Sequence record: OX016465
DNA: 64,000 nt
Direction: 5' to 3' (one strand)
DNA from: Escherichia phage vB_Eco_Tribble
Part shown: positions 4,789-15,333 of the stretch, piece by piece
Layout of the letters: the number at the start of each line of letters is the position of its first letter
How positions within the stretch are numbered: the stretch's first letter is position 1
Notes under the pieces: model-generated
Databases searched by the model: none
What the model saw: the letters and a program-made list of their open reading frames with translations, nothing else
What the model was told of the DNA's origin: nothing
Position numbers and translations under genes: made by a program

Positions 4789-6141
4789 ATGTGGAATCCA
4801 ATTGTTAATGTAGATATTACATTGAACACCGCAGGAACTACAAGAGAAGGTTTTGGTTTGCCACTATTCTTAGCTTCAACAGATAACTTTGAAGAAAGAG
4901 TACGTGGTTACACTTCCTTAACTGAAGTTGCTGAAGATTTCGATGAAAACTCTGCTGCATATAAGGCTGCTAAACAACTTTGGAGTCAGACTCCTAAAGT
5001 AACTCAGCTTTATATTGGTAGACGTGCTATGCAGTACACTGTATCAATTCCTGATGCCGTTACCGAAAGTACAGACTACTCAATTACTGTAGCTGTTGGC
5101 GGTGGAATTTCTCAACCATACCAGTACACAGCACAAGATTCAGACACTGCTGAGGTAGTGTTGCAACAGTTTAAAACACAGATTGAAGCTGACCCAACAA
5201 TCAAAGATAAGGTTTCTGTGAATGTAACTGGTAGCAATGGCTCTGCCACAATGATTATTACCAAAGCTGGTGATAATGACTTTGTGAAAGTAACAACCAC
5301 AGCACAGACTGTATATATTGCAAGTACAACTGCCGATACAGCAGCAACTGCTCTGGCAGCTATCGAAGCTTATTCTACCGACTGGTATTTCATTGCAGCA
5401 GAAGACAGAACTCAACAGTTTGTCTTAGCAATGGCTTCTGAGATTCAGGCTCGCAAGAAAATCTTCTTTACAGCTAACTCGGATGTAACAGCACTGCAAG
5501 GCACAGAACTAGCCAGTGCAAATGATGTTCCAGCACAGCTTGCTAAGAATATGTACACTCGTACAGTTTGCTTGTGGCATCACGCAGCAGCAGAAGATTA
5601 CCCAGAGATGGCATACATTGCTTATGGTGCTCCATATGATGCAGGTTCAATTGCTTGGGGTAATGCTCAGCTAACTGGTGTAGCAGCTTCTCTACAACCA
5701 TCTAATCAGAGACCTCTGACAAGTATTCAGAAGTCTGCTTTAGATGTACGTCACTGTAACTTTATTGACCTTGATGGTGGTGTTCCAGTGGTTCGTAGAG
5801 GGATTACTTCTGGTGGGGAATGGATTGATATCGTCCGTGGTGTTGACTGGTTAGAATCAGACCTGAAAACTTCTCTGAGAGACTTGCTAATTAACCAGAA
5901 GGGTGGTAAGATTACTTATGATGATACTGGTATTACCCGTATTCGTCAAGTCATTGAAACCTCTCTGCAAAGAGCAGTCAACAGAAACTTCCTGTCATCT
6001 TACACAGTTAATGTTCCTAAAGCCTCTCAAGTTGCTTTAGCAGACAAGAAAGCGCGTATCCTAAAAGATGTTACCTTCGCAGGTATCTTAGCAGGGGCTA
6101 TCTTGGATGTTGACTTGAAAGGTACAGTGGCTTACGAATAA
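4789..6141 (+). CDS. Tail sheath protein
   Basis: 450 aa ORF followed by a ~150 aa tube-like ORF, the sheath-tube order of contractile tails. Confidence 0.5.
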   Translation: MWNPIVNVDITLNTAGTTREGFGLPLFLASTDNFEERVRGYTSLTEVAEDFDENSAAYKAAKQLWSQTPKVTQLYIGRRAMQYTVSIPDAVTESTDYSITVAVGGGISQPYQYTAQDSDTAEVVLQQFKTQIEADPTIKDKVSVNVTGSNGSATMIITKAGDNDFVKVTTTAQTVYIASTTADTAATALAAIEAYSTDWYFIAAEDRTQQFVLAMASEIQARKKIFFTANSDVTALQGTELASANDVPAQLAKNMYTRTVCLWHHAAAEDYPEMAYIAYGAPYDAGSIAWGNAQLTGVAASLQPSNQRPLTSIQKSALDVRHCNFIDLDGGVPVVRRGITSGGEWIDIVRGVDWLESDLKTSLRDLLINQKGGKITYDDTGITRIRQVIETSLQRAVNRNFLSSYTVNVPKASQVALADKKARILKDVTFAGILAGAILDVDLKGTVAYE

Positions 6142-6156
6142 TAGAGGTAAATTGGA

Positions 6157-6603
6157 ATGGCTATGTATCAGCAATATTCCCCTAAAGACGTTGTATGTAG
6201 CTGGAACGGCATTGCTATTGAAGGCTTTGCTCCAGACTCATTCTTGCGTCTACAGAGAACATCACCACTTGTGACACCAGTTGTTGGTGCAGGTGGTCAG
6301 GTTGCTCTGACAAGAAATGCAGACAAGACAGGCACTATTGAGATTGAGTTAATGCAGACTTCTCTCTCTAACCAGATGCTTTCTGCAATTCAAGCTAAAC
6401 AAGACAATATGGAACTTGAAGAAGATATCTCTTCTAACTTCGTAATCTACGACCCATCAGGCTCTGTTCTGGCAACTGGTATTAACGCTTGGTTGCAGGA
6501 GTTACCACAGATTGAACTTGGTCGTGACCAGAACTCTAAAACTTGGATTTTTGGTTGTGAGAAGTTAGACTACACTTCTACAATTCCAGCGTCAAGTGTT
6601 TAA
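6157..6603 (+). CDS. Tail tube protein
   Basis: 148 aa ORF after the sheath gene, followed by a terminator-like hairpin. Confidence 0.5.
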   Translation: MAMYQQYSPKDVVCSWNGIAIEGFAPDSFLRLQRTSPLVTPVVGAGGQVALTRNADKTGTIEIELMQTSLSNQMLSAIQAKQDNMELEEDISSNFVIYDPSGSVLATGINAWLQELPQIELGRDQNSKTWIFGCEKLDYTSTIPASSV

Positions 6604-6615
6604 TAAATCCTATAA

Positions 6616-6650
6616 GGGGGAGACTTTAAAAGGTCTTCCCCTTTTTTGTT
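6616..6650 (+). terminator. Intrinsic terminator after the tube gene
   Basis: GGGGGAGAC-loop-GTCTTCCCC stem followed by a T tract. Confidence 0.5.
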
Positions 6651-6676
6651 TCTTTTAAAAGTATTAAGGAATCACA

Positions 6677-7075
6677 ATGAAAACAGAATCTAGAGTAATT
6701 AATGGTAAGAAAGTAAATATCGTTCTGCTTGGGGCAAGAGATGGTATTAAGATGTCTATGAAGTTGGGTAAAATTGTTGTTCCAACCTTTGCACAGATGC
6801 TATCAAGTCTGACTGACAAGGATAAGAAAGAAGCTCCAATGGTTCCATTTAAAGAACTTGTTGAAGCTTGTTTTGACAGAATTGAAGAAATTAACCTTGA
6901 AGAGATGGCAACCCTGTTATTTCAAGGGGCAACTGTTGATGACTTCCCACTTAATATTGATACGTACTTCCAAGCAAACTACGGTGAATTTATTGATTAC
7001 CTAGCATTTGCGCTGGAGGCAAACTTCGGAAGTTTTTTCGAAGCAAGCATTTTCAAAAGCCTAACTTCTCAGTAA
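6677..7075 (+). CDS. Tail assembly chaperone (gpG-like)
   Basis: 132 aa ORF between tube and tape measure genes; candidate slippery heptamer near its 3' end. Confidence 0.5.
   Translation: MKTESRVINGKKVNIVLLGARDGIKMSMKLGKIVVPTFAQMLSSLTDKDKKEAPMVPFKELVEACFDRIEEINLEEMATLLFQGATVDDFPLNIDTYFQANYGEFIDYLAFALEANFGSFFEASIFKSLTSQ
7033..7039 (+). other. Candidate -1 programmed ribosomal frameshift site (T TTT TTC)
   Basis: Heptamer TTTTTTC in X XXY YYZ phasing relative to the 6677 frame; a -1 shift enters the 7078 frame with no intervening stop. Confidence 0.45.
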
Positions 7076-7077
7076 AC

Positions 7078-7316
7078 ATGGGTAATACTCTACAGACACC
7101 ACTGACTGATGCTGCTGTAGAGGCAACCTATGAAGAAGCAGACGAGATGAAATTTGTGCTTGCTATTTATGGTATGGAAGGGTGTAAAGAAACACTTGAC
7201 CAACTCTTTGCTATGACATTCTCTGATTTATTATCATTGAGACAATTTCTTGAGATTCAGAGGTCGTATAAAGAGGAAATTGCTTACAACGAACTTAGAA
7301 GAGCAGGAAAAATGTA

Positions 7317-7317
<1 letters not shown>
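7078..7317 (+). CDS. Frameshift extension of tail chaperone (gpGT-like C-terminal part)
   Basis: 79 aa ORF in the -1 frame relative to 6677..7075, immediately upstream of the tape measure gene. Confidence 0.4.

Positions 7318-15333
<8,016 letters not shown>

Follow-up and report, generated by a model that had tools for sequence, protein, structure and literature searches.

An ordinary programmed −1 ribosomal frameshift very probably gives rise to a short and a long tail assembly chaperone from one start codon in Escherichia phage vB_Eco_Tribble. The predicted slip site is a TTTTTTC heptamer close to the end of the chaperone gene, within the 64,000 nucleotides of sequence record OX016465 that were analysed as a whole (the window), and comparison with the sequences of relatives makes the case for this site decisive. 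The feature is already known, as it is annotated at the same heptamer in close relatives. Our analysis adds its breadth and nucleotide-level rigidity across the PF21822 family, and evidence for a selected Shine-Dalgarno (SD)-like element 13 nt upstream.

The chaperone locus and its probable slip site

Over the 1.6 kb queried (bases 6100-7700 of the window), identity is 100% with Escherichia phages fjerdesal (MN850605) and Barry (LR880803); with Salmonella phage Felix O1 it is ~98%. By these identities the phage is a Felixounavirus of the subfamily Ounavirinae and has a contractile tail. An ARAGORN scan of the 64-kb window yielded no tRNA genes; Felix O1 is reported with 22 tRNA genes (PMC5543628), and we assume that a cluster of this type lies outside the window.

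The genes for sheath, probable tube, chaperone (G), its −1 extension (T) and tape measure follow one another on the plus strand (Table 1), which is the standard position of a G/GT pair. The 132-aa product of 6677..7075 matches Pfam PF21822 (Phage_TAC_15; E = 1.2e-19, 71.5 bits against a gathering cut-off of 22, residues 9-124) and phrog_1613 ('tail assembly chaperone', E = 8e-49), and PF21822 also scores above its cut-off in 5 divergent relatives (55.9-106.6 bits). The gpT analogue matches phrog_4963, likewise 'tail assembly chaperone' (E = 2.8e-55). NCBIfam returned no family, a PDB sequence search gave nothing meaningful, and an AlphaFold2 model of the fusion built without an alignment was unusable (mean pLDDT 33). 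We also observed that bacterial assemblies include deposited 132-aa chaperones which share a 90%-identity cluster with this one, for example 'Staphylococcus hyicus' WP_252560994.1 (contig up to 47.6 kb) and several E. coli/Shigella entries; these copies are most likely phage contamination or carry-over.

The tube and chaperone genes are separated by an intrinsic terminator (−19.7 kcal/mol, z = −2.95), whose stem is followed by TTTTTGTTTCT, and a terminator is annotated at the corresponding place in the record of phage Mordin. Through this terminator, the chaperone and tape measure genes would be transcribed less than those for sheath and tube. The sole match in Rfam, a sub-threshold one to GibS over the terminator hairpin, was set aside.

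Table 1. Features of the chaperone locus, in positions of the window; the last column gives variable positions in an alignment of 28 unique Ounavirinae sequences
Feature	Coordinates	Strand	Basis	Variable positions
Tail sheath gene	4789..6141	+	phrog_205	
Probable tail tube gene	6157..6603	+	phrog_280 virion structural protein; Pfam KPP10_Orf10; directly after sheath; tube label from gene position, not from a direct family match	
Intrinsic terminator	6614..6652	+	13-bp stem (hairpin 6614-6643), then T run	
Frame-0 tail assembly chaperone ORF (gpG analogue), 132 aa	6677..7075	+	ORF list, Pfam, phrog	
Zone with frames 0 and −1 both open, 79 nt	6997..7075	+	translations of both frames	
Shine-Dalgarno-like GGAGG, candidate 5′ stimulator	7015..7019	+	13 nt 5′ of heptamer	
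Predicted slippery heptamer T TTT TTC, X XXY YYZ phase	7033..7039	+	sequence; conservation in relatives	
−1-frame part of predicted fusion (gpT analogue), 92 codons and stop 7315-7317	7039..7317	+	includes listed ORF 7078..7317	
Tape measure protein gene	7317..9545	+	phrog_4036; Pfam TMP_3	
G upstream of cassette	6677-7012			149/336 (44%)
SD-like element to slip site	7013-7039			3/27 (11%)
Overlap 3′ of slip site	7040-7075			3/36 (8%)
T linker	7076-7120			21/45 (47%)

An earlier note on this DNA had proposed a −1 site joining two chaperone ORFs, and its geometry is borne out. TTTTTTC stands exactly at 7033-7039 in the X XXY YYZ phase of 6677..7075 (codons AGT TTT TTC, with the heptamer beginning at the last base of the first codon), and ORF 7078..7317 is in the −1 frame relative to 6677..7075. 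A −1 slip at the heptamer meets no stop, as had been claimed: in the translation of the −1 frame the last upstream stop is at 6994-6996, and from 6997 onwards the next one is at 7315-7317, directly at the tape measure start (7317). The stated distance of 12 codons before the zero-frame stop is correct if the stop is counted; the sense codons between the heptamer and the stop at 7073-7075 number 11. The proposed gpG/gpGT arrangement upstream of the tape measure gene is supported by gene order, by PF21822 and by the conserved heptamer with its open −1 extension. The predicted fusion CDS is join(6677..7039,7039..7317), of 213 aa.

The heptamer at 7033-7039 is the sole in-phase X XXY YYZ heptamer found in G. 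The long ORFs of the window contain 40 in-phase X_XXY_YYZ heptamers (Y = A or T) in 18,364 codons (~1 per 460), and the chance expectation for one in the 26-codon doubly open zone is ~0.057. TTTTTTC is also rarer than expected on the two strands of the window (13 versus 26.9 in dinucleotide shuffles). Taken from this one sequence alone, the evidence of the heptamer is suggestive to moderate and not conclusive.

Just two of the 13 TTTTTTC copies are on the plus strand, at 7033 and 29840. A second, weaker in-phase slip motif is present in the overlap, the tetramer T_TTC at 7051-7054 (plus strand); it is kept in close relatives only, in which every position around it is under dual-coding constraint. 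The tape measure gene in turn holds in-phase A AAA AAG (7604-7610) and A AAA AAT (7499-7505) on the plus strand, at which a −1 slip would lead to a stop after 7 and 11 codons, respectively, and to a truncated tape measure protein. A AAA AAG is the most shift-prone heptamer in E. coli, and the tape-measure AAAAAAG is found in Felixounavirus loci and is not listed for Mordin. These tape-measure heptamers are probably incidental.

Conservation of the heptamer and of the −1 frame

We compared the locus with its relatives in two ways. When 50,697 phage records were searched by tblastn in an unbiased way, with the 132-aa protein as query, nine lineages were recovered: Felixounavirus, Mooglevirus, Suspvirus, Kolesnikvirus (phiEa21-4), Pectobacterium phage Wc4, Yersinia phage P778 and three Vequintavirinae (A5-4, CR8 and Av-05, at 27-30% protein identity). 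All nine (9/9) carry an in-phase TTTTTTC at the aligned position, and in all nine the −1 frame opens a few codons ahead of the heptamer and closes just short of the tape measure gene; the +1 frame closes fast. Every relative examined, down to ~25% protein identity, has the heptamer together with an open −1 extension. The protein alignment retains just 7 invariant columns, two of which are the Phe-Phe encoded by the heptamer. For the Erwinia phages, blastn detects only positions 346-386 of the query gene, which correspond to 7022-7062 of the window, that is, to the slip site and the dual-coding stretch 3′ of the heptamer.

The second comparison was a scan of IMG/VR seeded on the peptide motif [EQ][AVK]N[FY][GKS][SC]FF, which yielded 80 loci. 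Seeding on ...[SC]FF makes amino-acid conservation in this set partly circular; the codon-level test is not circular. T TTT TTY is present in phase (NNT TTT TTY) in 80/80 loci, as TTTTTTC in 72 and as TTTTTTT in 8: the first Phe codon is TTT and the preceding Ser or Cys codon ends in T (Ser being AGT or TCT) in every locus. The −1 ORF is open for 71-126 codons in every locus (71-118 across the IMG/VR set). Clustering at 60% identity reduced the loci, whose GC content ranges from 0.35 to 0.65, to 28 lineages. The NNT TTT heptamer is found in 28/28 of them, against 5.35 predicted by the codon usage of the individual loci. Multiplied together, the per-lineage probabilities give ~1e-24, an approximate value, as are the other P values given here, since the lineages are related and not fully independent. 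In these comparisons, fixation of the site extends to the nucleotides themselves and holds for at least 28 lineages and two phage subfamilies.

Synonymous constraint has its own profile along the gene. In the alignment of 28 unique Ounavirinae sequences, third-position entropy in the G frame is 0.4-0.9 bits over most of the gene and 0.06-0.18 bits across 7007-7066 (windows starting at 7007-7052), and variable positions are distributed as listed in Table 1.

Deposited annotations agree with the predicted junction. Joined CDSs with matching start and end are recorded for Salmonella phage Mushroom (KP143762, 98% identical) and for Citrobacter phages Mordin and Maleficent. The Mushroom fusion that we built at the heptamer (213 aa) is exactly the deposited AJF40599.1/YP_009600435.1, and the Mordin fusion built in the same way (212 aa) is exactly the entry common to Michonne, Mordin and Maleficent (AKU44019.1, YP_009177317.1, AYR00813.1). 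Because the built fusions match deposited proteins exactly, the same junction has been annotated before. Moogle has its own deposited 212-aa fusion in the same cluster. Genes, heptamer and junction are alike throughout the annotated Felix O1-like set (Mushroom and the Citrobacter phages Moogle, Michonne, Mordin, Mijalis and Maleficent), in which the annotations are computational only. The protein collection has no entry for the window's own fusion sequence, with Ser5 and not Phe5. Two genome announcements refer to the frameshift (PMC4319497, PMC5543628), and a search of the searchable literature found no protein-level or reporter proof of the fusion for Felixounavirus/Felix O1-like or rV5-like phages.

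Candidate stimulators around the slip site

Upstream of the heptamer, most of 29 sequences have GAGG at positions −17 to −14. For the Glu codon behind this motif, 21 of 25 lineages use GAG, compared to 7.7 expected (P ~4e-9), where the expectation is taken from Glu codons followed by G in the same loci, which are GAG 32% of the time. A test of the SD motif against in-phase background is confounded by amino-acid conservation, and the codon-level tests alone are usable. Four lineages (phiEa21-4, P778, L041 and L068) have GAA and no GGAGG, and the element is therefore not essential. SD-like stimulators of −1 shifts are described at a spacing of 9-14 nt to the shift site (PMC5009743). The 13-nt spacer of GGAGG falls inside this range, as in a dnaX-like arrangement. 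Retention of GGAGG by synonymous selection suggests dnaX-style 5′ stimulation. We propose that pairing with the anti-SD sequence aids the shift, because of the GAG preference and of a spacer within the described range.

The earlier note had also suggested a search for a downstream stimulatory structure, and folding found none near the site. The 61 nt after the heptamer (7040-7100) fold at −3.4 kcal/mol, more weakly than their shuffles (z = +1.42). The segments 7040-7130 and 7043-7075 likewise showed nothing near the site, and the equivalent regions of five relatives from other lineages gave no significant fold, by a method that covers structures other than pseudoknots. There is no dnaX-like stem-loop 5-9 nt after the heptamer, and Rfam has no frameshift element at the locus. 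Two hairpins were considered and rejected. One at ~7088-7122 begins 49 nt downstream, in the most variable stretch, and is not significant (z = −1.13). The other, upstream at 7013-7029, came from the terminator scan (−6.5 kcal/mol); it keeps all six pairs in only 8/29 sequences and has no coherent covariation. In E. coli, H_HH.U_UU.Y motifs are among the most efficient, and U_UU.U_UU.C and U_UU.U_UU.U each give >0.1% shift with no stimulator (PMC4066793).

A different element was observed in distant relatives. Exact GGTATTGG, which encodes Gly-Ile-Gly in frame 0 and Tyr-Trp in frame −1, lies 9 nt after the heptamer in 8/28 distant lineages (L054, L055, L062, L064, L066, L068, L070 and L080). 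In several of these (L062, L068, L080 and L070) pairing with a CCAAT..CC farther downstream makes it one arm of a hairpin (−17 to −28 kcal/mol) that begins ~6 nt after the slip site and may be a 3′ stimulator in that sub-branch. The element is absent from the lineage of the window.

We tentatively raise the possibility, somewhat short of an even chance, that all PF21822 chaperones, from 35% to 65% GC, share a fixed cassette of (G)GAGG, a 13-nt spacer and U UUU UUY, in which the SD-like element would be a conserved rRNA-pairing stimulator, with one sub-branch adding the GGTATTGG 3′ hairpin and the Felix O1 branch adding none. No description of a family-wide (G)GAGG cassette was found in searchable papers. 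If true, there would be a family-wide stimulator for a recoding event that is usually said to need none.

Proposed mechanism, alternatives and known systems

We propose that translation from the ATG at 6677 would mostly end at 7073-7075 and give the 132-aa chaperone, while a minority of ribosomes would slip back one base with two tRNA-Phe on UUU (P site, 7034-7036) and UUC (A site, 7037-7039). The tRNA pair would re-pair with UUU UUU (7033-7038), and reading in the −1 frame would resume at CGA (7039-7041) and continue to the stop at 7315-7317. The predicted 213-aa fusion consists of residues 1-121, ending ...ANFGSFF, followed by RSKHFQKPNFSVNMGNT...GKM, with the junction peptide ANFGSFFR expected from a slip at the heptamer (...GSFFRSKHFQKP...). 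The slip is probably independent of 3′ RNA structure and probably helped by pairing of the 16S rRNA 3′ end with GGAGG (7015-7019). On the analogy of lambda gpG/gpGT and P2 gpE/E+E′, the short and long products would both coat the tape measure protein, which would be bound by the short product itself and by the G part of the long one; the T part, an extra C-terminal domain, would recruit tube subunits and start tail polymerisation, and both forms would leave before the tail is completed, with neither in the virion. The ribosomal nature of the shift and its efficiency are thus parts of a model, as are the role of the SD-like element and the function in assembly, whereas the geometry, conservation, synonymous constraint and match with deposited fusions are read directly from the sequences.

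It is highly improbable that the locus holds two independent genes, with the 79-aa ORF translated alone from ATG 7078 and the heptamer incidental. This ATG does stand 3 nt after the frame-0 stop, and most database records, including fjerdesal, the Felix O1 RefSeq record, JLBYU32 and many others, give two separate CDSs. However, the 15 nt scanned upstream of it contain no SD-like motif, its place is taken by an Ile codon even within the genus, in the 99%-identical contig L023, and there is no ATG at this position in Mordin, phiEa21-4, Wc4 or P778; most distant lineages either have their first ATG in the second half of the −1 ORF or lack one. The −1 frame 5′ of ATG 7078 encodes HFQKPNFSVNMGNTLQ..., and its peptide FFRSKHFQKP is conserved, with the Vequintavirinae counterparts FFRQERFRD and FFHERRFRKP although the DNA differs. 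The start-codon, SD-motif and upstream peptide evidence thus makes independent initiation unlikely, and as far as can be read from it the downstream ORF is without initiation signals of its own. Retention of the heptamer at synonymous sites in 28/28 lineages also argues against a merely incidental T run.

The two remaining alternatives accept the fusion and differ on how or where it arises. Transcriptional slippage, in which RNA polymerase adds one U within the T6 run, is improbable. The run is homopolymeric, an inserted U would give the identical 213-aa protein, and 8/80 loci have T7; yet the bacterial sites described as slipping productively are runs of ~9 A or T (PMC5009743), and the run here is 6 T (7 in those 8/80 relatives). 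Extension from TTC to TTT would be synonymously free, yet 72/80 loci keep the C, which matches the ribosomal hierarchy of A-site tetramers, with U_UU.C just above U_UU.U (PMC4066793), and the conserved SD-like motif at the spacing of a ribosomal stimulator has no role in transcription. A real shift elsewhere in the 79-nt overlap is very improbable. The in-phase T TTC at 7051-7054, at which the junction would read ...FFEASIFQKPNF..., is the example to consider, as U_UU.C is the second-best tetramer in E. coli; maximal frameshifting at tetramers, however, is ~10-fold below that of the best heptamer (PMC4066793). T_TTC is found in close relatives only, the heptamer in all, and in some relatives the −1 frame opens just 0-3 codons before the heptamer, which sets an upstream limit there.

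A ribosomal slip at 7033-7039 remains the preferred reading, and it implies an annotation correction: fjerdesal, the Felix O1 RefSeq record and many Felixounavirus records should have both G and the fusion join(6677..7039,7039..7317). The locus is one more very well conserved example of a tail chaperone frameshift, and it hints that the balance between short and long chaperone may be set by a Shine-Dalgarno-like sequence inside the gene. It may interest engineers of Felix O1-type therapeutic phages and builders of frameshift predictors.

Lambda gpG/gpGT is reportedly made by a −1 shift at G GGA AAG, as described by Xu, Hendrix and Duda in 2004, and the efficiency of the lambda frameshift is low. 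A lambda-type chaperone pair consists of overlapping ORFs before the tape measure gene, with a shared N-terminus and a minority long form (PMC5009743), and the present locus is like it in having two overlapping ORFs before the tape measure gene and products that would share an N-terminus. It is unlike lambda in its heptamer (G GGA AAG there) and in belonging to a myovirus and not a siphovirus. E. coli dnaX, with A AAA AAG, a 5′ SD and a 3′ stem-loop, is similar in having an SD-like sequence 9-14 nt 5′ of a −1 heptamer; unlike dnaX, the phage locus has a different heptamer and no 3′ stem-loop, and its SD-like stimulation is a candidate.

Phage P2 uses the slip site TTTTTTG for gpE/gpE+E′ with no downstream hairpin, and its frameshift product is described as experimentally established (PMC3091744), whereas the one here is predicted from sequence. 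The last base of the heptamer is C here and not G, so that the A-site codon is Phe UUC where P2 has Leu UUG. The chaperone here belongs to PF21822, and the likeness to P2 is one of layout and slip site: both phages have a contractile tail, a six-T slip site and, between the genes for tube and tape measure, a −1 extension, with no downstream hairpin.
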